This document shows positions 7,675 through 24,135 of a DNA stretch of 34,296 nt, piece after piece. Numbering within the stretch: the first letter of the stretch is position 1; each line of letters opens with the position of its first letter. The DNA is taken from assembly GCA_018901625.1 (NCBI GenBank), contig JAHIEM010000078.1:1-34296 (forward strand), read 5' to 3'. Below the pieces are notes generated by a model, which had not been told where the DNA came from, did not search any database, and worked only from the letters and a program-made list of their open reading frames with translations. The translations under genes and the position numbers were made by a program. Source of the DNA: Nanobdellota archaeon. Its GTDB lineage: Archaea > Nanobdellota > Nanobdellia > Pacearchaeales > GW2011-AR1.

Positions 7675-7823
7675 AAATTTAGTTGGAATTGAAGTATAAA
7701 AGAATTATTGTTCTAAAGAGGTATATGCTCTCAAGGATTGCTCACTTTTCTCCCAATCCCCTTGGAGTCAGTATCCACACAAAATGTTATCCCAATAGAA
7801 TAAGTCAAAACTGGTCTCACATT

Positions 7824-7917
7824 TCTCAATCGCATATGCGCCACCCAAAAAGCTTTGCTCTTTCTATCTTGAGTTACAAATTCTAAGAGCAAAGCTTTTT
7901 CCGGGAAGTTGAACCCA
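7824..7917 (-). repeat. Partial copy of tRNA-Gly 3' end (T-arm + acceptor strand + 3' flank) split by a palindromic insert
   Basis: 7824-7846 (ttctcaatcgcatatgcgccaccc) matches 7945-7968 of the real tRNA-Gly 3' end and flank. 7901-7916 (ccgggaagttgaaccc) matches 7967-7981 with a 1-nt insertion. A 54-nt insert separates the two parts. Confidence 0.7.
7847..7900. repeat. Perfect 14-bp inverted repeat with 26-nt loop (54-nt palindromic element; possible bidirectional terminator or MITE-like insert)
   Basis: aaaaagctttgctc (7847-7860) is the exact reverse complement of gagcaaagcttttt (7887-7900). A5/T5 runs at the stem base and CC on both sides. Confidence 0.8.
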
Positions 7918-7958
7918 TGGGTTCAATTCCAGTGCTATTTCAATTCTTCAATAGCATA

Positions 7959-8029
7959 TGCGCCACCCGGGAATTGAACCCGGTTCCCTTCCTTGGCAAG
8001 GAAGAATTCTACCGGTAAACTAGCAGCGC
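7959..8029 (-). tRNA. tRNA-Gly (anticodon GCC)
   Basis: Minus-strand read: GCGCTGC TA GTTT ACCGGTA GAAT T CTTCC TTGCCAA GGAAG GGAA CCGGG TTCAATT CCCGG GTGGCGC A. 71 nt, 7-bp acceptor with two G-U pairs, canonical T-loop, no encoded CCA. Confidence 0.85.
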
Positions 8030-8127: not shown

Positions 8128-8403
8128 TCATTCGTATCTTAGAGCATCAACGGGTCTCAGCCTAGAAGCCCTATAAGCTGGAATTGCTCCAAATATCAAA
8201 CCCACTCCCATAGAAAGCAAAAAGACTTCTATCATCAAAGGGATGCTGACATAAGCATTAGATAAAGAGAATCTCCCAATACCAGACCCACTAGCCAATT
8301 GACCAATAAATGCTGCTCCGAATACTCCTAAGATCAAGCCCATTACCCCCCCAATCAAGCCGATTACCCCCCCAATCAAGCCGATTACCCCCGCATTTAA
8401 CAA
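8128..8403 (-). pseudogene. C-terminal fragment of an FtsX/MacB-type ABC permease
   Basis: Ends with the family-typical C-terminus (FGAIPAYRASRLRPVDALRYE). Only ~90 codons are open and the track start is a TTG. No upstream continuation appears in any frame, and the fragment abuts the tRNA-Val island. Confidence 0.65.
8342..8392. repeat. 21-bp tandem repeat (about 2.4 units) inside the FtsX fragment
   Basis: attacccccccaatcaagccg occurs at 8342-8362 and 8363-8383, with a partial third unit. It encodes the duplicated GVIGLIG peptide. Confidence 0.85.
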
Positions 8404-8644
8404 AAAAGAAACAAAATTACTCTATTTGAAGATTCAAAAATGGAAATATTCTAAGACTAAGGGAAAGAGGAAAATAGCTTCGACTTTGCCATAAATACAT
8501 CCTAAGGTTTTGTCTTTTCTCCTTAGGACTTTTAGTTATGGGAGTATGGTGGATTTTGGTGTTCTAAAAATTGAAAAATCTTAGGATAAGCTTTAAAAGT
8601 GCCAGGTTTATTATTATTTTAAGATTATTAATAATAATCTAAAT

Positions 8645-8715
8645 GGGCTCATAAGCTAGCGGTAAACTGACTCGTTTACACCGAGTATTCCGAGGTTCAA
8701 CTCCTCGTGGGCCCA
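8645..8715 (+). tRNA. tRNA-Val (anticodon TAC)
   Basis: GGGCTCA TA AGCT AGCGGTA AACT G ACTCG TTTACAC CGAGT ATTC CGAGG TTCAACT CCTCG TGGGCCC A. 71 nt; acceptor, anticodon and T stems pair, with one C-A mismatch in the D stem. Confidence 0.8.
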
Positions 8716-8726
8716 TATTTACTAAA

Positions 8727-9299
8727 ATGGAAGAAAAGATATTAAAATTTATTAGAGAAAAATATGAAGAAGGCGATTTTAAGTATCATATTTCTGCTGT
8801 TGTAAAAAATGCTATGTTGTTAGCTAACAAATTAAAAGCTGACAAAGATGTTGTAGAAATGGCTGCTTATTTGCATGATATGGCAAGATCGCTTAATAGA
8901 GATGATGTTAAGGAGTTTGTAAATGAGAATGAACATCATATTGAAGGAGCAAAACAAAGTGAGATTTTTCTTAAAGAATTGGGCTATGATAAGGAGTTCA
9001 TTGAAAAAGTATCCCATTGTGTTCTTACTCATAGGGGTAGGGGTAATATAGAACCAAAAACAGTAGAAGCAAGGATTGTTGCTTGTGCTGACGCAATGGC
9101 TCATTTTGATACATTTTTAGATTTATTCGAAGTTTTTTTAAAAACAACAGACTCTTTTGAAGATGCAGTTATAAGAATAGAGAAAAAAATGCAAAGAAAT
9201 TGGGAGATTAAGTTAACATTGCCAGAAGCAAAAGAAATAGTAAAAGACAAATATGAAGCTATAATGTTATTAATTAAAAGTATGAAAGAATACATTTAA
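8727..9299 (+). CDS. HD-domain phosphohydrolase
   Basis: H...HD signature (AAYLHDMARS), HCVLTHRG and ACADAMAHFD motifs of the HD superfamily. Starts 11 nt after the tRNA-Val. Confidence 0.7.
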   Translation: MEEKILKFIREKYEEGDFKYHISAVVKNAMLLANKLKADKDVVEMAAYLHDMARSLNRDDVKEFVNENEHHIEGAKQSEIFLKELGYDKEFIEKVSHCVLTHRGRGNIEPKTVEARIVACADAMAHFDTFLDLFEVFLKTTDSFEDAVIRIEKKMQRNWEIKLTLPEAKEIVKDKYEAIMLLIKSMKEYI

Positions 9300-9330
9300 A
9301 TCATTAATCAAATTAACATTAATAATAAAT

Positions 9331-9419
9331 TGGGCTCAAAACAACTCGGTTGAACATAATCATCTCAAAAAGTAGTAGCTCGTTACAAAAGTTAACCTTT
9401 AGGAGCTTTTTGTTTACAC
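9331..9419 (+). repeat. tRNA-Val-derived module M2 (5' flank + acceptor-like GGGCTCA ... degenerate core ... hairpin motif ... GTTTACAC core)
   Basis: aataataaatTGGGCTCA mirrors the tRNA-Val 5' flank and acceptor (8631-8651). Internal GCTCGTTACAAAAG is a degenerate anticodon arm. The H-like motif aaaagttaacctttaggagct is at 9387-9407 and the core at 9412-9419. No T-arm follows. Confidence 0.7.
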
Positions 9420-9468
9420 CGAACCTAACAAAGTTCTTCCAAGAAAATTAAAAACATTTTAGAATAAT

Positions 9469-9843
9469 TTATTGGACAAGTTCATAAATTCCTTTTTCTA
9501 AAACATACATATCTAAAGGATTCGGAGCTACACCCCTTAATTGTTCAGCTGCTTCATCTCTTCCAGCAGACTTAAGAGCTTCGATAACATCTGGAGAATA
9601 TGCAAGTCTTGATTCTTTAGGAATGGGAAATGTTGCCCCTGTTTGTTCTTCAATTCTTTCTTTTGTAAAAATTGTTGGAATAACCAAACCCACCAATGAC
9701 TTTCTAACTTCTAAGGGTGTATCTTCGTCCGTGCTAATTTGAGTTACTTTAACTCTTTCCCATTTACCTCTGTAAAAAGTTCCAGGAATTCCATACATAG
9801 CCATCACTTCATCTGACCCATGAATTATTACAGTTCTTGCCAT
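9469..9843 (-). CDS. Hypothetical protein (124 aa)
   Basis: ATG-initiated ORF filling one inter-core interval. No recognisable motif. Confidence 0.5.
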   Translation of the reverse strand: MARTVIIHGSDEVMAMYGIPGTFYRGKWERVKVTQISTDEDTPLEVRKSLVGLVIPTIFTKERIEEQTGATFPIPKESRLAYSPDVIEALKSAGRDEAAEQLRGVAPNPLDMYVLEKGIYELVQ

Positions 9844-9950
9844 TTCAAATCAATAAAATATACCTTTTTAAGCATTTATATGCTAAAATTCAAATTAATT
9901 TCCTTATCATAAAAAGTGTTTAATAAAAAAAGAACAATAATGTTATACTT

Positions 9951-9996
9951 GTTTACACCGAGTATTCCGAGGTTCAACTCCTCGTGGGCCCATATT
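9951..9996 (+). repeat. Orphan tRNA-Val 3' half, type a (perfect 46-nt direct repeat of 8674-8719)
   Basis: gtttacaccgagtattccgaggttcaactcctcgtgggcccatatt is identical at both positions. It covers the tRNA from the last 5'-strand anticodon-stem base (G31) through the discriminator (A73), plus 4 nt of 3' flank. Confidence 0.9.
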
Positions 9997-10003
9997 AAAC
10001 AAT

Positions 10004-10116
10004 TGGGCTCAAAACTCAAGAAAAACAACATATCAAAAAGTGCTCTTTTTATTTGGATGCTTTATGATATATTAGTTTACACCGAGTAGTCCGCAGTTCG
10101 ATCCTGCGTGGGGCCA
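10004..10116 (+). repeat. Module M3 + orphan tRNA-like 3' half, type b
   Basis: TGGGCTCAAAACTC...ACATATCAAAAAG... leads to the core at 10075-10082. Then CGAG TAGTC CGCAG TTCGATC CTGCG TGGGGCC A: a good T-arm and a different acceptor strand. Confidence 0.75.
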
Positions 10117-10165
10117 TGCAAACTAAATCGGATAGTTTTAAATAATAAGGAGCATCATTCATCTT

Positions 10166-10462
10166 ATGGACTCCCTTCCACCCCCTATCTTAATTTCAAT
10201 ACTAGGATTAATAATAATTTTACTTGTAGTCTTCTTTGTGAAAGGCAAAAAGAAAGAAAAAATGAAAAATATAAATTTGGTTCAGTTTATTACAGGAATT
10301 TGTATTGCATTAATTGGGGCAGGAATAATGTTTCATGGAAACATCTTTGGAGAAAGGAACTCAGGTATTGCTACAGTTATTGGAATTATTGGTATAGGAT
10401 TGATAGCTACATCCTATAGACACAGATTACTAAAAAAACAAGTAGTTCGTTATAAAAGTTAA
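10166..10462 (+). CDS. Small integral membrane protein (98 aa)
   Basis: Three hydrophobic segments (ILISILGLIIILLVVFFV, ICIALIGAGIMF, ATVIGIIGIGLIA). Preferred over the overlapping 10108-10419 frame. Its 3' end runs into the repeat module. Confidence 0.55.
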   Translation: MDSLPPPILISILGLIIILLVVFFVKGKKKEKMKNINLVQFITGICIALIGAGIMFHGNIFGERNSGIATVIGIIGIGLIATSYRHRLLKKQVVRYKS

Positions 10463-10509
10463 CCTTTAGGAGCTATTTGTTTACACAAAGTATAACAAAA
10501 AGGATATAC
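10433..10509 (+). repeat. Composite site: degenerate core - hairpin motif H - GTTTACAC core - hairpin motif H
   Basis: TTCGTTATAAAAG, then aaaagttaacctttaggagct (10454-10474), then the core at 10479-10486, then aaagtataacaaaaaggatatac (10487-10509). The left half is near-identical to 9366-9419. Confidence 0.7.
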
Positions 10510-10512
10510 TTT

Positions 10513-10932
10513 CTAAATCTTATTTAGCTCTTCACTTATTTTTTCTTTTATTCTAATTAGTATATCCTCTGCAACTTTAAAATCTTTGTTATAAGGAGCA
10601 TAATTTTTACCCCACCTTTCATCTATAAAAGTGGTGCCAAACAATTCTCTTTTGTCCTTATATCTCGGGATAACATGAGTATGCAAGTGAGGGGTGACAT
10701 TTGCTAGAGTAGCGTAATTATAGAGATCAGGATTAAACAATTTCTTAAAAACTTTCTTCAGTTTTTTACCTATTTTAAAATACTCTTCTTTCTCTTCATC
10801 AGTCATATCAAAGAAGTCTAAAGCATCTTTTCTTTTAGCCCAGATGTAAACCTTTCCTAAATAACATTGGTTTTCATTTAGATAAACTTCCCAGTAATCA
10901 TATTCTTTTATTAACAATTTCTTGTAATCCAT
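10513..10932 (-). CDS. HIT-family nucleotide hydrolase/transferase
   Basis: Histidine triad HLHTHVIPR near the C-terminal third. 139 aa. Starts 1 nt after the stop codon of the NYN gene. Confidence 0.75.
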   Translation of the reverse strand: MDYKKLLIKEYDYWEVYLNENQCYLGKVYIWAKRKDALDFFDMTDEEKEEYFKIGKKLKKVFKKLFNPDLYNYATLANVTPHLHTHVIPRYKDKRELFGTTFIDERWGKNYAPYNKDFKVAEDILIRIKEKISEELNKI

Positions 10933-10933
10933 T

Positions 10934-11590
10934 TTATTTTAGACAATTCTCCATAATAACATTCTTACCTAAAACCATAAATTTAAAGTTTTCTCTTAAC
11001 TCTCTTGAATATCCTTTTGCAAGAGAGACACTAAAAACTTCTTTTTTATTATTTTGAGCAAGTTTCATTGCAGGAGTAAAATCCGCATCTCCTGAAAGAA
11101 CTATTAAAGTATCCGCTTTATTTTTAATAGCATATTCAACTAAATCAACAGCAATCATTATATCAACGCCCTTTTCTTTCTTCTTTACATTTCCAATTGT
11201 ATCTAATATGTTCTGTTCAACAATCGGCTTACAATTTTCACATAACTCCATAGAGTCAATAAGCTCTTGTTTTTCTTTTAATAATTCTTTAGTCGAATGA
11301 ACTTGCAGTTTTCTTGTATGAATCGTAAACTTTGGAATCTTTCTTAAATCATCTATAAACTTGAGATGAGAAAAGTATAATTCTTTTCCATCTTTTAAGG
11401 GGGGCATAGAATTGTAATACCTTGCTTCTTTTAATTCTACATCAAACTGTTTACAAATTAAGTCTACTAGCTTATGGAAGTCTAGATTAGAAGGCTTAAT
11501 CTTCATTTGTTTTAAGTTATGATATAGGTTATTACCATCAATAAAGATAATTGCTTCTTTCGCCATTTTAGAAAATATAAAACCCGGCAT
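10934..11590 (-). CDS. NYN/LabA-like (PIN-fold) domain protein, putative RNase
   Basis: IFIDGNNLYHNL, GVDIMIAVDL and VLSGDADFTPA motifs typical of NYN/DUF88. An alternative start (MAKEA...) lies at 11566. Confidence 0.7.
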   Translation of the reverse strand: MPGFIFSKMAKEAIIFIDGNNLYHNLKQMKIKPSNLDFHKLVDLICKQFDVELKEARYYNSMPPLKDGKELYFSHLKFIDDLRKIPKFTIHTRKLQVHSTKELLKEKQELIDSMELCENCKPIVEQNILDTIGNVKKKEKGVDIMIAVDLVEYAIKNKADTLIVLSGDADFTPAMKLAQNNKKEVFSVSLAKGYSRELRENFKFMVLGKNVIMENCLK

Positions 11591-11665
11591 TGTCCGAAGA
11601 CCATACCGGGGACTTAATAATTAATATAACCACGCAGAGTATTTAAGCTTTGCTTTTTGGCTCCA

Positions 11666-11742
11666 AAGAAAGTATATCCTTTAGGATATAATCGTTTACA
11701 CCGAGAAGATCACCGGTTCGATTCCGGTAGGGACCATATTTT
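11666..11742 (+). repeat. 77-nt perfect direct repeat, copy 1: hairpin H + core + orphan tRNA-like 3' half, type c
   Basis: aagaaagtatatcctttaggatataatcgtttacaccgagaagatcaccggttcgattccggtagggaccatatttt is identical to 15253-15329. It contains T-arm ACCGG TTCGATT CCGGT and acceptor strand AGGGACC A. An acceptor-like GGCTCCA sits upstream at 11659. Confidence 0.9.
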
Positions 11743-11830
11743 TTTTGAGATAGAAAGATTTAAAAGTAACTAATAAATAATATTTTAGAGGCGATGGTAA
11801 AGAATCGCCTTAGAATTCTAAAAAACAAAA

Positions 11831-12439
11831 ATGACAAAACAGGGATTAGATAAATTAACAATAAGTCAACCAATATGGCCTGGAAAAGAACTTCAAGTTC
11901 AACCAGGAGACTTATCAAAGTTTGCTCCTTATGGAAATGGTGTTTATGGTTATCAAAGAAGTTCACTTGAACCAATTAGAGGAGACCCCCCACAAGAGGA
12001 AACAGCAGGATTAATTTATTTTGGAAATAGAGTAAAAAGAGAGGATTTTGATGGATTCTTAAGAATGATGAATGTTAGAGCAGGAAACAAAGATTATGCT
12101 GCTTTTGTTCAAGAATCTGCTAATCCACTTGAAGATAGATATTTTAAACAAATGAGACTAATGTCTAAATTTGGTCTTAGATTCATGTTTGGAGCTATTG
12201 GTAATGGAGAATATGATTCATTTAAAGAACAGGATTTAACATTAGGAGAAGCATTATGGTCTTTTATGGATGCTGAAAAAGAAAGATTTGGAACTTCTTT
12301 TGGAGACCCAAGAATTGAAGGTAAGATGGGTGGGGATGGAGATTATGCTAGAGAAGAACTTAGTTTTGGATTCATGTTAGAAAATGAGTATCATCACATT
12401 TATCGTATTTGGAGCAGAGCTTGGCTAGTCACAAAGTAA
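11831..12439 (+). CDS. Hypothetical protein (202 aa)
   Basis: ATG-initiated ORF occupying one inter-core interval. No recognisable motif. Confidence 0.5.
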   Translation: MTKQGLDKLTISQPIWPGKELQVQPGDLSKFAPYGNGVYGYQRSSLEPIRGDPPQEETAGLIYFGNRVKREDFDGFLRMMNVRAGNKDYAAFVQESANPLEDRYFKQMRLMSKFGLRFMFGAIGNGEYDSFKEQDLTLGEALWSFMDAEKERFGTSFGDPRIEGKMGGDGDYAREELSFGFMLENEYHHIYRIWSRAWLVTK

Positions 12440-12448
12440 AATTTTATA

Positions 12449-12580
12449 TGGCCCAACCACATCAAAATATCAACAAATGGCCCAAAACTCGTGTAACAAA
12501 ACATATCATAAAAAATTCTATCTAAAATAAGAAGTAATTTGAGATATTCGTTTACACAAAGTATATCAAAAAGGATATAC
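12449..12580 (+). repeat. Module M5: decayed 3'-end remnant + acceptor-like GGCCCAAAACTC + core + hairpin H
   Basis: ATGGCCCAAC...AACAAATGGCCCAAAACTCG parallels 9985-10016 (GTGGGCCCA...AACAATTGGGCTCAAAACTC). ACATATCATAAAAA is shared with M2/M3. The core is at 12550-12557, followed by aaagtatatcaaaaaggatatac (12558-12580). Confidence 0.65.
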
Positions 12581-12631
12581 TATCTTAATTCAGCTTTGGA
12601 TATATTTGTTAATTGAAAAATATCTAAAAAA

Positions 12632-13312
12632 CTACTGATAGTGTTTTATCAAACTATCTAGGACAGTATATGCTTTTGTTGAATCTTTCTCATACAAAAC
12701 AAATATAACCTGTTTGTAAGTTGAAGCAATATCTATTATGTTTATTTCCTGCTCAGCAAGTTTTCCAGTAATAAAAGAAAGAAATCCTGGAATATCTTTA
12801 GAGTAAGAAGTTGATTCTCCTGCTTCTCTCAATGAAAGCAGTGTAAGCCCCTCCTTTTTTTCTAGGATACTTTTACCAAGCCCAGAAAATTTCTTCTCAT
12901 TTTTCTTATCAATTACAACGGTAATCTCTCCACTTCCCTGAACAAAGAACATTATGTCTCCCAAGTCCCATCTAATTGTCTTAGAAATCTTATTAATTAG
13001 ATTCATTACATTCTTTGTTCTTTCTAAAGTAAATGAAGAAATTTTATTTTTCATAATCAATTCGCAATCTTTCAAAAGCTCTCCACAGTCATTCTCACTT
13101 TTAGTTACTTTAATCTCATCATAGTATCTCTGGATAGCAATTAAAACCGAAGAAAAGTTAGCCTTCTTATTCTTGTGTTTTATCTTACTTAGAATCTCGC
13201 GAGTAAGAGCAGAATAATTAATCAATCCTTTCTTCAGAACTTCATTTAAGTAAAGATTGGAGCTTATTTCTTCTTTTACTAGTTCAGCAGTTGATTTATT
13301 CCCTACATTCAT
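12632..13312 (-). CDS. Hypothetical protein, possible small-molecule-responsive regulator
   Basis: 226-aa ORF divergent from the ATP-grasp gene across a 59-nt TATA-rich spacer. The N-terminal segment is HTH-like (weak). No firm motif. Confidence 0.4.
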   Translation of the reverse strand: MNVGNKSTAELVKEEISSNLYLNEVLKKGLINYSALTREILSKIKHKNKKANFSSVLIAIQRYYDEIKVTKSENDCGELLKDCELIMKNKISSFTLERTKNVMNLINKISKTIRWDLGDIMFFVQGSGEITVVIDKKNEKKFSGLGKSILEKKEGLTLLSLREAGESTSYSKDIPGFLSFITGKLAEQEINIIDIASTYKQVIFVLYEKDSTKAYTVLDSLIKHYQ

Positions 13313-13371
13313 TTTAGTTATGTATAATATTAGACATAAAGTATAAATATCTATAGTTTAAATACTTTTTC
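13313..13371. promoter_or_regulatory. Divergent promoter region
   Basis: 59-nt spacer containing two TATA-like boxes (agtataaatatc, gtttaaatac) about 20-35 nt from the two opposing ATGs. Confidence 0.4.
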
Positions 13372-14541
13372 ATGAAAAACATAAAACTTGAAAAAGCATT
13401 GAAAGAAACATTTAACAGCGCATATTTTTTCACAAAATATCCCGAACTAAAAAACAACAAAGATACAGGAAACCCTGTATTTCCGTTCGTAGAAAATGGA
13501 TATGACAGTCAGACAATAGTTTCAGAAACAATGCGATTTTTTCCAGTTGCAGCACTAACTGGGGGAAGTTTCTTCATGCCATCTCAAGCACCAATTGAAC
13601 AAGTAGAATCATGGCTAGACTTGGGTCTCCCAATACCTGATGTACAAATATATGACAATGATGATCCGCAGGATTATACCAAAAAAGTAAATGCTCTTGC
13701 TTCTAAATCACTGCATCTTCTACATCCATTCTCCAATTTTTCATCAGAAGTATGTGCAGTAAATCCACAATTGCTCTTAGAACTAAACACGAAAAGCAGT
13801 CTTCCAAACTTAACAGAACACACGCCTAAAAAGAAAAAAGCAACTCTTCAAGAAATGTTAGCAATGCAGCCTCCATTTGTTGTGAAAAAAACAACTGGCT
13901 CATCAGGAGATGGAGTTAAGATAATCAAACGCCCAAGCCAGTTATCTGAGTTAGAATCATTTCTAAATGGATCTGAATTTTTTGTAGAAGATTACATTGA
14001 CTATGTTCATAATCATAGTCTTCAGTTTTTTGTAGACTCTAAGGGGGAAATACACTACATAGGTTATGGAGAACAGAACACAACAGAAGAAGGAGAATAC
14101 CTCGGTCTTGTTTGTATGTTAAATAAAACCCCTGCAAAAGGATTACTAAACGTTGGAGAGAAAACCTGCGCTGAAATTGCTGCAAGAGGGTACAAGGGAT
14201 TTGTAGGGCTAGACATATTAGAAGATGACGAGGGAAAATATCACATAATTGATCCAAACATAAGATGTACTGCTGCAACTCCGGTTTACCTACTTCAAGA
14301 AATACTAGTTCCAATTCTAAGTGCATATATCTATGTGGGGTCTGGCAAAATGCAAGCAGAAAACCCTTCCAAAGTAATTGAAAATATAAAAAATGCAGGG
14401 GGCGTTATGCTCTCAATGTCTCATGGAATTCATGGGCAGTACAAGTTCTTTGGCATGTTTGGTGGATCTGATTGCAAAGAAGCATTGCAAAACTGGCAGA
14501 TATTTCAGCAACAATTAAAAACCGAGAATGAGATAAAATAG
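13372..14541 (+). CDS. ATP-grasp family ligase
   Basis: VVKKTTGSSGDGVKII (phosphate-binding loop region), FVEDYID, and GFVGLDILEDDEGKYHIIDPNIR (Mg/ATP site) fit the ATP-grasp fold. Confidence 0.7.
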   Translation: MKNIKLEKALKETFNSAYFFTKYPELKNNKDTGNPVFPFVENGYDSQTIVSETMRFFPVAALTGGSFFMPSQAPIEQVESWLDLGLPIPDVQIYDNDDPQDYTKKVNALASKSLHLLHPFSNFSSEVCAVNPQLLLELNTKSSLPNLTEHTPKKKKATLQEMLAMQPPFVVKKTTGSSGDGVKIIKRPSQLSELESFLNGSEFFVEDYIDYVHNHSLQFFVDSKGEIHYIGYGEQNTTEEGEYLGLVCMLNKTPAKGLLNVGEKTCAEIAARGYKGFVGLDILEDDEGKYHIIDPNIRCTAATPVYLLQEILVPILSAYIYVGSGKMQAENPSKVIENIKNAGGVMLSMSHGIHGQYKFFGMFGGSDCKEALQNWQIFQQQLKTENEIK

Positions 14542-14542
14542 A

Positions 14543-15271
14543 ATGTGCAGACTATTCGCAATATTATCTAAAGAAAAAACAGATGCTAAGTACTGGTTTT
14601 TTGATGCAGAAATCCCTTTTAAAGATTTTTCAGAGAAAATTATCAATGGTGGTCCGCATAATAGCGGATGGGGTGTTGGCTGGCTTGACAAAAAGTGGAA
14701 GATATTCAAAGAAGGTCAGGAAAGTGTGAATAAATATGATTTCAATAAAATCAGAGAAATAAACTCAAATCTTATACTAATTCATTTAAGGCATGCTTCA
14801 TCAGGAGATAATACCACAAAAAACGCCCACCCTTTCTTATACAAAAATTGGATATTTGAACATAATGGTGGTGTTGACAGAAAAGAACTAATAAATCATT
14901 TAAATACCAATCTAAAAAATCAATTAACTAGCGAGACTGACTCCGAGGTTTTCTTCTTTTTGATAATGCAAATATTAGAAGAAAGAGGAGATATTTTAAC
15001 TGCAATAAAAGAAACTGTTAGAATTATTAAGAAATATCCTTATCGTGCGCTTAATTTTATTTTGTCAGATGGAGAAAGTGTTTATGTCTTTAGAGATATA
15101 AGTCCTAAACATATGGACAAAAAGGAATACTATTGTTTGAATTATATAACAACCGAGGATGAGGTTATAATAAGTTCAGATCCTCTAACACACGATAAAT
15201 GGATCTCAGTAAACTTAAGAGAATTATTAGAAATAAACAAGGATTTGAAAATAAGAAAGTATATCCTTTAG
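14543..15271 (+). CDS. Class II (Ntn) glutamine amidotransferase-like protein
   Basis: Begins MCRLFAI (catalytic Cys2 after Met). HLRHASSG..NAHPF and the FEHNGG motif match YafJ/GATase-2-like proteins. Starts 1 nt after the ATP-grasp stop codon. Its last codons lie in the 77-nt repeat. Confidence 0.7.
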   Translation: MCRLFAILSKEKTDAKYWFFDAEIPFKDFSEKIINGGPHNSGWGVGWLDKKWKIFKEGQESVNKYDFNKIREINSNLILIHLRHASSGDNTTKNAHPFLYKNWIFEHNGGVDRKELINHLNTNLKNQLTSETDSEVFFFLIMQILEERGDILTAIKETVRIIKKYPYRALNFILSDGESVYVFRDISPKHMDKKEYYCLNYITTEDEVIISSDPLTHDKWISVNLRELLEINKDLKIRKYIL

Positions 15272-15329
15272 GATATAATCGTTTACACCGAGAAGATCAC
15301 CGGTTCGATTCCGGTAGGGACCATATTTT
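15253..15329 (+). repeat. 77-nt perfect direct repeat, copy 2 (H + core + tRNA-like 3' half, type c)
   Basis: Identical to 11666-11742. The core is at 15281-15288 and the 3' half ends at A 15323. Confidence 0.9.
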
Positions 15330-15676: not shown

Positions 15677-17497
15677 ATGGCACAAGAAGAATCTAGAAAA
15701 AAAGACAAGCAAGAAGACAGTCTGCAAAATGAAGTAAAGGATATTTCTATAGACTACCAAGCAAGAAAAGGACTCCCACAGTCAAGCATTTCAGAAGAGC
15801 AGCAGAAAGAAATGGAGAAAACCAGGGAGAAGCTAGAAACATTCAAGAAAACAGTAATTAAAAAATACCCATTCATGCAAGCAATAGGAATTCTCCCGCC
15901 GCAAGTTGCAGAAAAGTTTGAAGAAGAGGAAGAAGTTCCAGAGCAAGACAGGAAAGACAAGCCAATTCACATAATGATGATAATCCCAGAAGAGAATTTT
16001 AAAGAGATTCCCAAGATAAAAGCTGAGGTTGTCAAGATAGTAAAAGACATTAAACCAAAGGCATGGGTCCATATCAAGACACCAGTAGACCTATTCAATT
16101 ACTGCCTGGATTCTAAATATGATATTGCAGAAGCAATTGCAATGTCATTCCCGCTTCATGATACAGGAATATTAGGGGCATTTAGAACAGCTCAAATTCA
16201 CAAGTCATTATGCCTAAGAAAGTTCGAGAGATATGTGGCTAGTTATGTTATTGCAGGCTCACTAGTAAGAGGAACTGCGACTAAAACAAGTGATGTAGAT
16301 GTATACCTAGTCATAGATGACACAGATGTAAAGAGAATGCCGAGACTAGAGCTAAAAGAAAAACTAAGAGGAATAATCTATAGCTACATAGCTGAAGCAG
16401 AAGAACTCGCAGGAGTTAAAAACGTCCTTAATGTCCAGGTTTACTTGCTGACTGATTTCTGGGAGTCTGTTAAAGATGCGCACCCTGTTATTTTCACATT
16501 CATAAGAGACGGAATCCCGCTGTATGACAGAGGAACATTCCTGCCATGGAAATTATTACTAAAAATGGGAAGAATCAAGCCCAGCCCAGAAGCAATTGAC
16601 ATGTTCATGTCAATGGGAGACAAGGTTTCAGAGACAGTAAAAAGAAGGCTTCTAGATATTGTTATAGGGGATATTTTCTGGGGAGTTTCCACACCTAGCC
16701 AGGCACTATTAATGCTATACGGCTTGCCTCCTCCAACTATTCAGGAACTTGTAAAGCAAATGAGGGAGATATTTGTAGAAAAAGAAAAAATGTTAGAGCC
16801 AAGATACGCAGACATTCTAGAAGAAATATGCATAAAATACTATAAAGGATACGAACACCAGAAAATAAAAGAAGTTTCAGGGGCAGAAGTTGACAAGCTT
16901 CTGAAAGATACAGAAGACTATATGAAAAGACTTAAGGAACTAAGAGAGCAGATAGAAAAAAGAAATCAGGAAAAAACAATAGAGCAAATCTACAATGATT
17001 CAATCCAATTGTTGCAGGGAATCTTTGGCAAAAAATCAGAATCAGGCCTAGTAGAAAGCTTTGAAAAACAATTCATAAAAAAAGGCAAGCTCCCAGATAA
17101 TTATCTTCATATACTAAAAGACATTATCAAAGCAAGAGAACAGTTTAAAAAAGGAAAACTAGCAAGGCATGAAGTTGAAGATGCAAGAAAAAATGCTTCT
17201 CAATTAATCAATCACTTAATTGAATACACACAGAGATGCGACCTAGCCACTATTCAAAAATCAAGATTGAGACTAAAAACCAAAGATAAAACCTATGAAT
17301 TAGTGCTTGCAGGCAAAGATGCATTCCTAATTGACCAGGGACAAGTTCAAAAAGTCTCAGAAAAAATAGAAAAGTCATCTCCTGAAGAGCTTACAAACGC
17401 GCTTGCAAAACAAGAAAACAATCTTGAAGTTAAGACATCTGCAAAAGTTCTTGAAATAGTCAGGAAAAAGATAGGCGACTTTGAGATTATTTTATAA
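15677..17497 (+). CDS. Large nucleotidyltransferase-domain protein (606 aa)
   Basis: Pol-beta-type NTase signature GSLVRGTATKTSDVDVYLVIDD in the middle. Lys/Glu-rich N- and C-terminal extensions. TATA-like aagtttaaatag about 25 nt upstream. Confidence 0.6.
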   Translation: MAQEESRKKDKQEDSLQNEVKDISIDYQARKGLPQSSISEEQQKEMEKTREKLETFKKTVIKKYPFMQAIGILPPQVAEKFEEEEEVPEQDRKDKPIHIMMIIPEENFKEIPKIKAEVVKIVKDIKPKAWVHIKTPVDLFNYCLDSKYDIAEAIAMSFPLHDTGILGAFRTAQIHKSLCLRKFERYVASYVIAGSLVRGTATKTSDVDVYLVIDDTDVKRMPRLELKEKLRGIIYSYIAEAEELAGVKNVLNVQVYLLTDFWESVKDAHPVIFTFIRDGIPLYDRGTFLPWKLLLKMGRIKPSPEAIDMFMSMGDKVSETVKRRLLDIVIGDIFWGVSTPSQALLMLYGLPPPTIQELVKQMREIFVEKEKMLEPRYADILEEICIKYYKGYEHQKIKEVSGAEVDKLLKDTEDYMKRLKELREQIEKRNQEKTIEQIYNDSIQLLQGIFGKKSESGLVESFEKQFIKKGKLPDNYLHILKDIIKAREQFKKGKLARHEVEDARKNASQLINHLIEYTQRCDLATIQKSRLRLKTKDKTYELVLAGKDAFLIDQGQVQKVSEKIEKSSPEELTNALAKQENNLEVKTSAKVLEIVRKKIGDFEIIL

Positions 17498-22980: not shown

Positions 22981-24135
22981 TCATGTTGAGGTTGTGGCTT
23001 CTGCTTTCATAGATGCTTCTTGCTGAACTAATTGTCCAGTATTGGAAGCTTTCTCCAGCGAGGCAAGTTCCTTGCCTCTAGCCAAGATATTTATTGCAGA
23101 ATTGTAATCTCTTGGAAGTTCTCCATTGCATTTCTCACAGCAAAATTGCCTTTGCCATAAGAATAGCTTTCTGTTTCTATGCCCGCAGAAATTACAATCC
23201 CTCGTAGTGTAAGCAGGGTCTACATCTTGAACTACACAACCAGCGTTTTCAGCCTTGTAGTGTAGATACATAGAGAGTTTGCCCCAGCTCGCATCTGCGA
23301 TATTTTTAGCATTATAAGAAATTCCTATTAGATTCTTTATATTCAGTTTTTCAATGGCAATAAATTTATTTTCTTTGATTAGCTTTGTTGATAATTTATG
23401 TATAAAATCATCTCTTGCATTTGCTATTCTTTCGTGAATTTTAGCAACTTTTATTCTTGCTTTTATTCTGCTATTGCTTCTTTTCTCTTTCTTTGATAAA
23501 GATTGCTGTGCAATTTTTAATTCTTGATGATAATTGTCAAAATGTTTTGGATTTTCATAAGCATTTCCATCGCTGTCATAAATATAATTTTCTATTCCAA
23601 CATCAATGCCAATCTCTCCAATTCCACAAACTCTTTTAATTACATTGTCAGTAACAACAGAAGCATACCATCTTCCAAGAGATTTCTTTATTGTAATGCT
23701 CTTTATGTTTCCTTCAACTTGCCTATGCAGTTTGATTGGAATCTCGCCAATTTTTGAAAGCCATAATATCCCTTTCTTTGCTTTCAAATGCGTGAGAGAA
23801 AATCCAGATTGATTGTAAGTGAAAGTCTTAAACCAATTTTTACCTTTGAATCTTAGTCTACCAACTTTATGCCCCTGCTTTTTTCGTTGTGAAAGTGATG
23901 ATAGATTGCCAAATAATCTTTGATTTTCCATCTGTAAAACTTTTGAATGAACATTATCCATTTGAGGATTTACAACTTTCAAATCTAATAAGAAATTTTG
24001 TATTTCGTTCTTTGTATATCCTTCATTCAGTTCGGCAAGAAGATAATTGTAAGTTTGTCTGCAAACTTCTTTAGCAATTTCTAACTTTTCTACTTCTGCT
24101 TTCTTTGGATACAATCTGAATTTATATGTTATCAT
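22981..24135 (-). CDS. tnpB: TnpB (IS605 OrfB-family RNA-guided nuclease)
   Basis: N-terminal YKFRLYPKK. RuvC-I IGIDVG, RuvC-II IAIEKL, zinc ribbon CNFCG...CEKCN, RuvC-III RDYNSAINI. Confidence 0.9.
   Translation of the reverse strand: MITYKFRLYPKKAEVEKLEIAKEVCRQTYNYLLAELNEGYTKNEIQNFLLDLKVVNPQMDNVHSKVLQMENQRLFGNLSSLSQRKKQGHKVGRLRFKGKNWFKTFTYNQSGFSLTHLKAKKGILWLSKIGEIPIKLHRQVEGNIKSITIKKSLGRWYASVVTDNVIKRVCGIGEIGIDVGIENYIYDSDGNAYENPKHFDNYHQELKIAQQSLSKKEKRSNSRIKARIKVAKIHERIANARDDFIHKLSTKLIKENKFIAIEKLNIKNLIGISYNAKNIADASWGKLSMYLHYKAENAGCVVQDVDPAYTTRDCNFCGHRNRKLFLWQRQFCCEKCNGELPRDYNSAINILARGKELASLEKASNTGQLVQQEASMKAEATTST

Follow-up and report, generated by a model that had tools for sequence, protein, structure and literature searches.

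In archaea, integrases of the SSV1, pNOB8, pTN3 and pT26-2 types place elements at tRNA genes, and the sites at which archaeal tyrosine integrases cleave have been reported, or inferred, to be the borders of the anticodon loop (PMC8371274). According to the Islander principle (PMC4383910), the incoming copy of the tRNA 3' part restores the gene, and the displaced 3' fragment stays behind. Integrons have been reported in Archaea as well (PMC9668308). Hitcher elements lie between att sites, have no recombination genes, accrete in tandem and depend on an integrase acting in trans (PMC11389934). The tycheposons of the streamlined Prochlorococcus genomes form tRNA-adjacent islands, in which partial tRNAs derive from successive integrations that pushed older material inward (bioRxiv 10.1101/2020.12.28.424599). 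The locus described here lies at the tRNA-Val(UAC) gene of a Nanobdellota archaeon (Pacearchaeales), where a perfect 46-nt direct repeat brackets a 1.2-kb segment with two genes. The window, i.e. the whole stretch of DNA that was analysed, has a length of 34 kb (34,296 nucleotides) and is contig C106 of a metagenome-derived bin of 1.21 Mb (155 contigs, 84.7% complete, G+C 35.7%). The names attached to the closest homologues, the small genome sizes among relatives and this G+C content point to a DPANN archaeon similar to Pacearchaeota and Woesearchaeota. Two further classes of elements are relevant to this locus. The cis-mobilizable elements (CIMEs) are decayed integrative and conjugative elements (ICEs) that adjoin a helper ICE of the same family. 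The integrative mobile elements exploiting Xer (IMEXs) carry no integrase, form tandems and use the host Xer tyrosine recombinase, an example being the CTX phage at dif.

The observations presented below suggest, with a probability of roughly 0.7, that the two copies of the 46-nt repeat are two of the joints in an array that is anchored at tRNA-Val(UAC) and consists of small mobile cassettes with no recombinase gene. In each joint, the 7-nt sequence TTTACAC of the anticodon loop would be flanked by a left arm and a right arm, the latter being either the 3' half of tRNA-Val or a non-tRNA arm of the kind called P'1 and P'2. Conservative site-specific recombination within the loop sequence would add, remove and rearrange the cassettes, and the enzyme, most likely a tyrosine recombinase, would act in trans. 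The locus functions in the manner of tandem tRNA-targeted integration and has the appearance of an integron, and it belongs to neither class, because its units contain no integrase, its anchor has no intI and its core is not that of attC.

The 46-mer (GTTTACACCGAGTATTCCGAGGTTCAACTCCTCGTGGGCCCATATT) is found exactly twice in the window with no mismatches and has no match in 100 shuffles (Table 1). The identity widens to 50 nt with one mismatch (8670-8719 versus 9947-9996). Copy 1 lies inside the intact tRNA and its short flank, and spans the final base of the 5' strand of the anticodon stem, the anticodon loop, the entire 3' part of the tRNA and 3-4 nt of flanking DNA. This gene is the sole tRNA-Val(UAC) of the 1.21-Mb assembly. 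The second 'tRNA-Val' that ARAGORN reports at 9916-9992 is a false call, which joins the 3' half to an unrelated 5' side, and the Rfam tRNA model is silent there even at E<=1. As the identity extends over 46 nt including the 4-nt flank, the donor would have had a tRNA end identical to the resident one, and the event was probably recent, taking place within one population or within the genome.

The exact repeat described in the initial annotation was thus confirmed. The crossover in the anticodon loop proposed there is supported. The suggested attL/attR geometry holds in so far as the 3' part of the tRNA is repeated, but the copies are not an isolated pair: they are two of the eight cores of an array. 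As annotated, the enclosed DNA contains an HD-domain open reading frame (ORF), a 124-aa ORF and a tRNA-like module ending at 9419, and no integrase or replication gene, the Pfam, PHROGs and NCBIfam scans all being negative.

The core sequence GTTTACAC corresponds to one stem base and the 7-nt anticodon loop of tRNA-Val(UAC). Same-strand cores at 8674, 9412, 9951, 10075, 10479, 11694, 12550 and 15281 split 6.6 kb (8674-15281) into about seven cassettes, which are 0.1-2.7 kb in length and have 0-3 genes each. The sequence occurs 26 times on both strands of the 1.21-Mb genome, so that about 0.05 occurrences are expected in the array stretch versus eight observed. To the right of the cores lie either 3' halves of tRNA-Val, namely A (the functional type) twice, B at 10075 and C at 11694 and 15281 (two identical copies), or non-tRNA arms, namely P'2 at 9412 and P'1 at 10479 and 12550. 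The P'1 arm is a hairpin, AGTATATC-AAAAAG-GATATACT. The left arms are of the types P1 (AAGTATATCCTTTAGGATATAATC), P2 (..AGTAGCTCGTTACAAAAGTTAACCTTTAGGAGCTTTTT) and P4 (AAAAAAGAACAATAATGTTATACTT), or are long 'M' arms beginning with AATTGGGCTCAAAAC.

The cargo of the successive cassettes is as follows: the HD-domain gene; the 124-aa gene; none, in a unit of 124 nt; a 98-aa transmembrane (TM) protein; HIT and NYN genes; a 202-aa ORF; and ACT-like, ATP-grasp and amidotransferase (GATase) genes. Four of these genes (124-aa, HIT, NYN and ACT-like) are encoded by the minus strand. For comparison, the genomes G024, G040 and G009, which belong to other genera, were used together with loci labelled L (L030 is in G024, L197 in G009 and L198 on contig C112 of the window's own genome). 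A cargo-less unit of 124 nt with equal spacing is also present in G024 (L030 12279-12403).

Table 1. Features of the tRNA-Val(UAC) locus and of the proposed cassette array (positions in the window)
Feature	Position	Strand	Evidence and remarks
Functional tRNA-Val(UAC), putative anchor of the array (attI/attB-like site)	8644-8716	+	ARAGORN; Rfam RF00005 8645-8715, 55.5 bits
Repeat copy 1: core 1 (GTTTACAC, 8674-8681), tRNA 3' half 'A' and TATT	8674-8719	+	exact 46-mer
Cargo of cassette 1: HD-domain phosphohydrolase, 190 aa	8727-9299	+	PF01966, E 2.7e-15; HDIG domain
Left arm 'M1' of core 2	9328-9411	+	starts AATTGGGCTCAAAAC, ends in P2-type arm AGTAGCTCGTTACAAAAGTTAACCTTTAGGAGCTTTTT; repeats D3, D5, D8
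Core 2 (GTTTACAC), joint of the HD and 124-aa cassettes	9412-9419	+	core match
Right arm P'2 (CGAACCTAACAAAGTTCTTCCAAGAAAATTAAAAACATTTT...)	9420-9468	+	homologous arms after cores in G024 (L030 12403) and G009 (L197 8082)
Cargo of cassette 2: 124-aa protein, conserved DPANN family	9469-9843	-	72 homologues, 56-87% identity
Left arm P4 of core 3 (AAAAAAGAACAATAATGTTATACTT)	9922-9950	+	near-identical arm in G024 (L030 12403, 13451) and L125
Repeat copy 2: core 3, orphan tRNA 3' half 'A' and TATT	9951-9996	+	exact 46-mer; Rfam: not tRNA
Linker (AAAC) and left arm 'M2'	9997-10074	+	with copy 2, a 124-nt cassette without cargo
Core 4 and orphan tRNA-Val 3' half 'B'	10075-10117	+	acceptor strand TGGGGCC, incompatible with resident 5' strand GGGCTCA
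Remaining array, cores 10479, 11694, 12550, 15281	10479-15329	+	P'1/P1 arms, two 3' halves 'C'
606-aa protein, conserved right-hand border of the array	15677-17497	+	weak nucleotidyltransferase domain match; no PDB sequence relative

A consensus was derived from 46 joints of the window and 20 other loci. Directly before TTTACAC, the left arms follow the pattern ..cTTTA.GATATAtT.G (also written ..TTTA.GATATAWTNG), with T at -3 in 91% and G at -1 in 76% of the joints, and the consensus of the right side is CGAGtAtTc. The tRNA's own 5' side (AAACTGACTCG) has only its last bases in common with the left-arm consensus of the 46 non-tRNA joints. The standard site of a tyrosine recombinase consists of two short, imperfectly inverted arms around an exchange region of 6-8 bp. 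Eleven nucleotides of the P1 arm (GGATATAATCG) are identical to the left arm and the start of the spacer of the Pyrococcus abyssi dif site, which is composed of ATTGGATATAA, TCGGCC and TTATATCTAAA (PMC2958812). This identity may hint at a Xer-like enzyme. Neither the right arms nor the spacing agree with dif, the GATATAA blocks being 13 nt apart versus 6. No dif was identified in the bin, and the dif-like candidates found in relatives were barely above the control.

Other genera have the same arms, the P2 arm being conserved in G024, G040 and G009. The composites P1-core-P'1, P4-core-P'2 and P4-core-3'-half are present in G024, P1 and P2 arms in G040, and P2-core-P'2 in G009. Identical arm types enclose different cargo, and one kind of cargo can have different arms. 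The arm pair P'2...P4 encloses the 124-aa gene in the window and a 300-aa epimerase gene in G024, where a composite P4-core-P'2 precedes the epimerase cassette, which ends in P4-core-3'-half. In L125, P4 ends a cassette with one ORF (a small TM protein) directly past an identical tRNA-Val. The NYN nuclease gene together with about 60 nt of upstream sequence (10934-11590 versus L030 9350-10006) has 86% DNA identity across two genera; relative to the core, it is in the opposite orientation in L030, and its partner is HIT in the window and GNAT in L030.

It was considered that the repeat might be an artefact, in which coexisting strains were joined by the assembler through the shared 46-mer. The bin is a metagenome assembly of 155 contigs, and two of them, C120 and C46, begin at such joints, so that the assembly graph branches there. 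This is highly improbable, however, as the same architecture occurs in many independent assemblies, and as 46-50 nt is generally shorter than ordinary reads and the final k-mers of an assembly.

With archaeal tRNA-integrated elements the locus has in common the tRNA target, the crossover in the anticodon loop, the restored 3' part and the displaced fragment. Those elements encode their own integrase and measure 5-40 kb, whereas the units described here measure 0.1-2.7 kb, carry 0-3 genes and no integrase, are stacked seven in a row and have many right arms that are not derived from a tRNA. The resemblance to integrons lies in the arrangement of small, mostly one-gene, unrelated cassettes with a short conserved core, variable and imperfectly symmetric arms and one fixed anchor, in the toxin-antitoxin cargo, and in the association of the same cassette ends with different cargo. 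In contrast to integrons, there is no intI beside the anchor (no tyrosine recombinase is found in the 34-kb window), and a functional tRNA gene serves as the anchor. The core G/TTTACAC does not fit the attC core GTTRRRY: as read from the sequence, positions 4 and 6 of GTTTACA are pyrimidines, where purines are required. Furthermore, the cargo is in both orientations and has its own upstream regions rather than being promoterless; the HD gene alone could use the tRNA promoter.

The att flanks, the lack of recombination genes, the tandem arrangement and the proposed integrase in trans are shared with CIMEs and hitchers. Unlike for CIMEs, no helper was found in any array, and the units look like dedicated cargo carriers common to several genera. 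IMEXs are likewise integrase-less tandem units, and P1 has 11 nt in common with the P. abyssi dif; the target is a tRNA gene instead of dif, however, the right arms are not dif-like and the spacing is different. The islands of tycheposons also consist of tRNA-adjacent flexible DNA punctuated by partial tRNAs. Tycheposons have a tyrosine recombinase and often replication genes, and their tRNA fragments are remnants, whereas here conserved two-armed sites surround every small cassette. Full-text searches of the literature found no description of such arrays in DPANN archaea.

The segment between the two 46-nt copies could alternatively be a single miniature integrative element of 1.2 kb, which carries the HD and 124-aa genes and entered tRNA-Val in one integration, the copies being its attL and attR. 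The geometry fits this explanation. Moreover, in L130 and L141 the tRNA-Val is immediately followed by the linker, an M arm and a core. These loci show a recipient configuration, at whose tRNA 8720-9950 could have been inserted in one piece; such a joint insertion would give exactly the present order. Several observations make a single element rather unlikely. There is an internal core at 9412, whose arms are conserved elsewhere, and six further cores follow downstream of it. The HD gene occurs alone after tRNA-Val in L039, L040, L042 and L044, and the 124-aa gene occurs alone in L034. Because the arms of the internal core (P2-type on the left and P'2 on the right) recur in other genera, the bracketed segment is composed of two cassettes, the HD cassette (8682-9419) and the 124-aa cassette (9420-9958).

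The variability of the locus was explored by scanning metagenome contigs for 27 nt of the tRNA 5' half, which gave 41 loci. The gene of the 606-aa protein lies downstream of tRNA-Val in 14 of them, at a distance of 296 nt to 5.7 kb (7.0 kb in the window). In L138, this gene follows the tRNA-Val at a distance given as 296 nt or about 230 nt with no second core, representing an empty site. The interval from the tRNA-Val to the 606-aa gene contains 0-7 additional cores, accompanied by 3' halves or arms. Cargo varies from contig to contig almost throughout and includes toxin-antitoxin pairs, small membrane proteins and UvrA-like, ABC transporter and dUTPase-like genes. Perfect additional copies of the resident 3' half are present in L163 (three in a row) and in L140. 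Extra perfect 3'-half copies are thus typical of such arrays, and so is the repeat of the window. In many DPANN contigs, the 606-aa gene adjoins tRNA-Val and the L35Ae and L10e genes.

Two other relatives, L044 and L039, lack the second copy. Sequences similar to window positions 8621-9300 (the tRNA and the HD gene, 83-84% identity) and 10023-10099 (M2 and core 4, 90-92%) are only about 22-28 nt apart in these loci, and the M2 arm corresponds to their post-HD arm at the latter identity. The intervening positions 9301-10022, which comprise M1, core 2, the 124-aa cassette, core 3, the second 46-nt copy and the linker, are missing. The tRNA-Val locus lacking the segment, for which the initial annotation proposed to look, was therefore found in the form of the empty L138 and of the two loci without 9301-10022, but not as a site devoid of precisely 8720-9950. 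Inserts of another kind are seen in L147, L149 and L136, where about 100 nt are flanked by duplicated 3' ends of the T-stem and acceptor (for example, ..ctcgtggggccatacatattg.. occurs twice). These inserts represent a different, T-arm-proximal insertion class at the same tRNA.

The start codon of the HD gene is located 11 nt past the 3' end of the tRNA. This gap is too short for an archaeal promoter, so that the gene can reasonably be expected to be co-transcribed with tRNA-Val from the tRNA promoter. Homologues with 87, 86, 69 and 69% identity (in L044, a Pacearchaeota bin, L039, L040 and L042/L043, respectively) start 9-25 nt past tRNA-Val(UAC) on the same strand. Behind each of them lie one more core, whose arm is of the M2 or another type, and a 3' half that is decayed or truncated. 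The HD gene of L042 is succeeded by two toxin-antitoxin cassettes and then by the same border gene of about 600 aa, which is present in L040 as well. More distant homologues, with 77-55% identity, are found in unrelated contexts.

These adjacencies have to be weighed against the possibility that the locus is immobile now, in which case the HD gene would be an old, vertically inherited neighbour of tRNA-Val, the repeat a duplication kept by gene conversion and the cores fossils. The tRNA-Val-HD adjacency is indeed present in lineages whose HD proteins are just 69% identical, the second copies are decayed there, and no enzyme was found. Against this, the HD gene is missing after the tRNA in 41 of the 41 contigs that share the resident tRNA 5' half, and its homologues of 77-55% identity have other neighbours. 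In addition, near-identical arms and an approximately 90% identical NYN gene are common to different genera, and the cargo changes in almost every related contig, all of which renders an immobile locus improbable. The initial annotation had regarded synteny of the HD and 124-aa genes with tRNA-Val in distant relatives without the second repeat copy as evidence against integration. The gene is neither private to the window nor simply syntenic, being adjacent to tRNA-Val in four other lineages but in none of the 41 contigs. It is therefore a first cassette that recurs and not a fixed neighbour.

The 124-aa protein had been taken for an orphan, which it is not, given its 72 homologues. It has no Pfam, PHROG or NCBIfam match. 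Its AlphaFold2 model has a pLDDT (predicted local distance difference test) score of 94.4, and a comparison of the model with the PDB gave no fold match at E<=0.001, the best TM-score being about 0.26; the predicted fold may thus be absent from the PDB. The closest homologue (87%, L034) constitutes a single-gene cassette that is bordered by tRNA-Val(UAC) on one side and by a decayed duplicate of the 3' half of this tRNA on the other. It is inverted relative to the window, and the homology is limited to the gene. More distant homologues are located among housekeeping genes, without cores.

The recombinase was looked for in the array, in the genome and in relatives. No tyrosine recombinase (PF00589) is encoded on C106. 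The four of the genome are on C5, C85, C82 and C4, and comprise three Xer-like enzymes and one of element type (that on C4, cut by the contig end). Scans of all array ORFs with Pfam, PHROG and NCBIfam revealed no recombinase or replication protein, tblastn with the genome's own four integrases gave no match in the 41 metagenome loci, and no serine recombinase was detected in the genome. In 40 relatives, integrase and tRNA-Val genes are not co-located, apart from distances of 18 kb in G024 and of 5 kb in G009, in the latter case beside ribosomal protein genes. G024 has five joints and a single Xer-like gene at 78% completeness. Viral contigs were searched in three scans: the P1 arm with core and the 3' half A had 0 matches, and a looser arm pattern had 32, all in unrelated coding sequence.

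Several candidates were rejected. The element-type integrase on C4 is not an evident helper, since its 118 homologues are on plasmid- or virus-like contigs or are flanked by tRNA-Ser, without TTTACAC joints. A core near the integrase on C85 is inside a coding region. An IS200/IS605 (Y1) origin would agree with the hairpin arms, the TTAC in the core and the two Y1 genes of the genome, but direct repeats of 8-46 nt flank the units, and the IS605-type ends around the TnpB gene of the window are unlike the arms. The border gene was examined as a hidden recombinase and has just its weak nucleotidyltransferase domain; the canonical CCA-adding enzyme is encoded separately, on C71.

By combining these observations, it is possible to outline how the present array may have arisen. 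The HD cassette would bring its own tRNA 3' half, thereby keeping the essential tRNA intact. The 124-aa cassette has a non-tRNA right arm, which at the tRNA would destroy the sole tRNA-Val(UAC). This cassette could therefore not enter the tRNA itself, and would fit downstream joints only. Two paths are equally possible. In the first, the HD and 124-aa cassettes were inserted together at the tRNA core of a recipient similar to L130 and L141. In the second, the HD cassette with 3' half A entered the tRNA, and the 124-aa cassette subsequently entered the M1-core-3'A joint. On either path, the distal 46-nt copy would be the displaced 3' end of the tRNA. The circle of the HD cassette would be expected to have the junction 9411/core/8682 (M1-core-3'A-TATTTACT) and that of the 124-aa cassette the junction 9950/core/9420 (P4-core-P'2). 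The expected empty site would read 8681/9959..., followed by TATTAAACAATT.

The orphan 3' halves also raise the possibility of a split or permuted tRNA, in which they would be expressed and joined to the 5' half, as in the split tRNAs of Nanoarchaeum. The organism is a DPANN archaeon, the break is in the anticodon loop, where split tRNAs and introns are situated, and the arrangement of a 3' half, a 12-nt linker and GGGCTCA looks permuted. Such processing is scarcely credible here, because an intact tRNA-Val(UAC) is present and because neither half B nor half C can pair with GGGCTCA. The M modules have no D arm and no 5' strand of the anticodon stem, Rfam is negative at every orphan, and several right arms are not tRNA-like.

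A number of observations are not readily accommodated by the proposed cassette array. Neither a circular form nor an excision junction nor a precise empty site of 8720-9950 was found, and both flanks of the repeat pair are absent from all 41 contigs. No integrase is linked to the loci of G024, G040 and G009 or to those of the HD and 124-aa homologues, and none accompanies any array examined. The dyad symmetry around the 7-nt loop, with 4.4 of 11 positions versus 2.8 +/- 0.2 in shuffles, is real but weak. Halves B and C, both of them orphans, are not compatible with the resident 5' half. At their start (AATTGGGCTCAAAAC), the M arms oddly repeat the 5' acceptor strand of the tRNA together with its upstream context. 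The orientation of the cargo varies between equal arm types, which simple cassette insertion does not explain. In L140 and L143, it is the 5' half of tRNA-Val that continues, at the core, into a non-tRNA arm. L140 has another complete tRNA-Val, which includes a duplicated 5' half, 3.5 kb further downstream; some inserts may hence contribute the 5' part of the tRNA instead of its 3' part. A third P'1..P1 cassette of the genome is on contig C112 (L198 4007-5983, minus strand) near tRNA-Lys, a site other than tRNA-Val. Its cargo consists of a TrmB-like regulator and a Glu/Leu/Phe/Val-dehydrogenase-like gene, and its left flank is ..ATGGGCTAATTA ahead of the core. Finally, all DNA used for the comparison comes from metagenome assemblies.

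Other features of the window lie outside the array. Immediately upstream of the promoter region of tRNA-Val is a 91-aa ORF (8128-8403, minus strand) with 21-bp tandem repeats encoding GVIGLIG; by its sequence, it resembles a C-terminal remnant of an FtsX-type permease. The 3' end of tRNA-Gly(GCC) (7959-8029, minus strand) is duplicated downstream (7821-7846 versus 7943-7968, 88%), and a perfect 16-bp inverted repeat (7847-7862 and 7885-7900) is located beside the duplicated end; together, they look like another small insertion at a tRNA 3' end. A solitary TnpB (IS605 OrfB-like) gene of 384 aa (22981-24135, minus strand) has no adjoining Y1 transposase, and a similar sequence (aggttatgg..) is present near both of its ends. 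Positions 1-45 of the contig are found again at the ends of C2, C16 and C116 or close to them, and positions 1-25 also near an end of C77. A dispersed repeat or insertion sequence has probably broken the assembly at window position 1.

The genomes of DPANN archaea are tiny, the organisms are host-dependent, and the ways in which they acquire accessory genes are poorly understood. The locus described here is a defined hot spot, where cassettes are stacked and are exchanged across genera, with cargo ranging from toxin-antitoxin pairs and nucleases to small membrane proteins and enzymes. For practical purposes, the 46-nt repeat bounds two cassettes of a larger array and not one mini-element. In a broader proposal, which is doubtful at present, DPANN archaea of the Pacearchaeota/Woesearchaeota type would possess a tRNA-anchored analogue of integrons run by a housekeeping XerA-like recombinase, by which genomes of 0.5-1.2 Mb swap single-gene cassettes across genera, the first cassette being expressed from the tRNA promoter. 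Should the enzyme be the host Xer recombinase or an unlinked helper integrase, the array would correspond, in archaea and on the basis of a tRNA, to integrons or IMEXs. In that case, the core TTTACAC and its arms would also provide a simple rule by which flexible genes can be delimited in metagenome bins.

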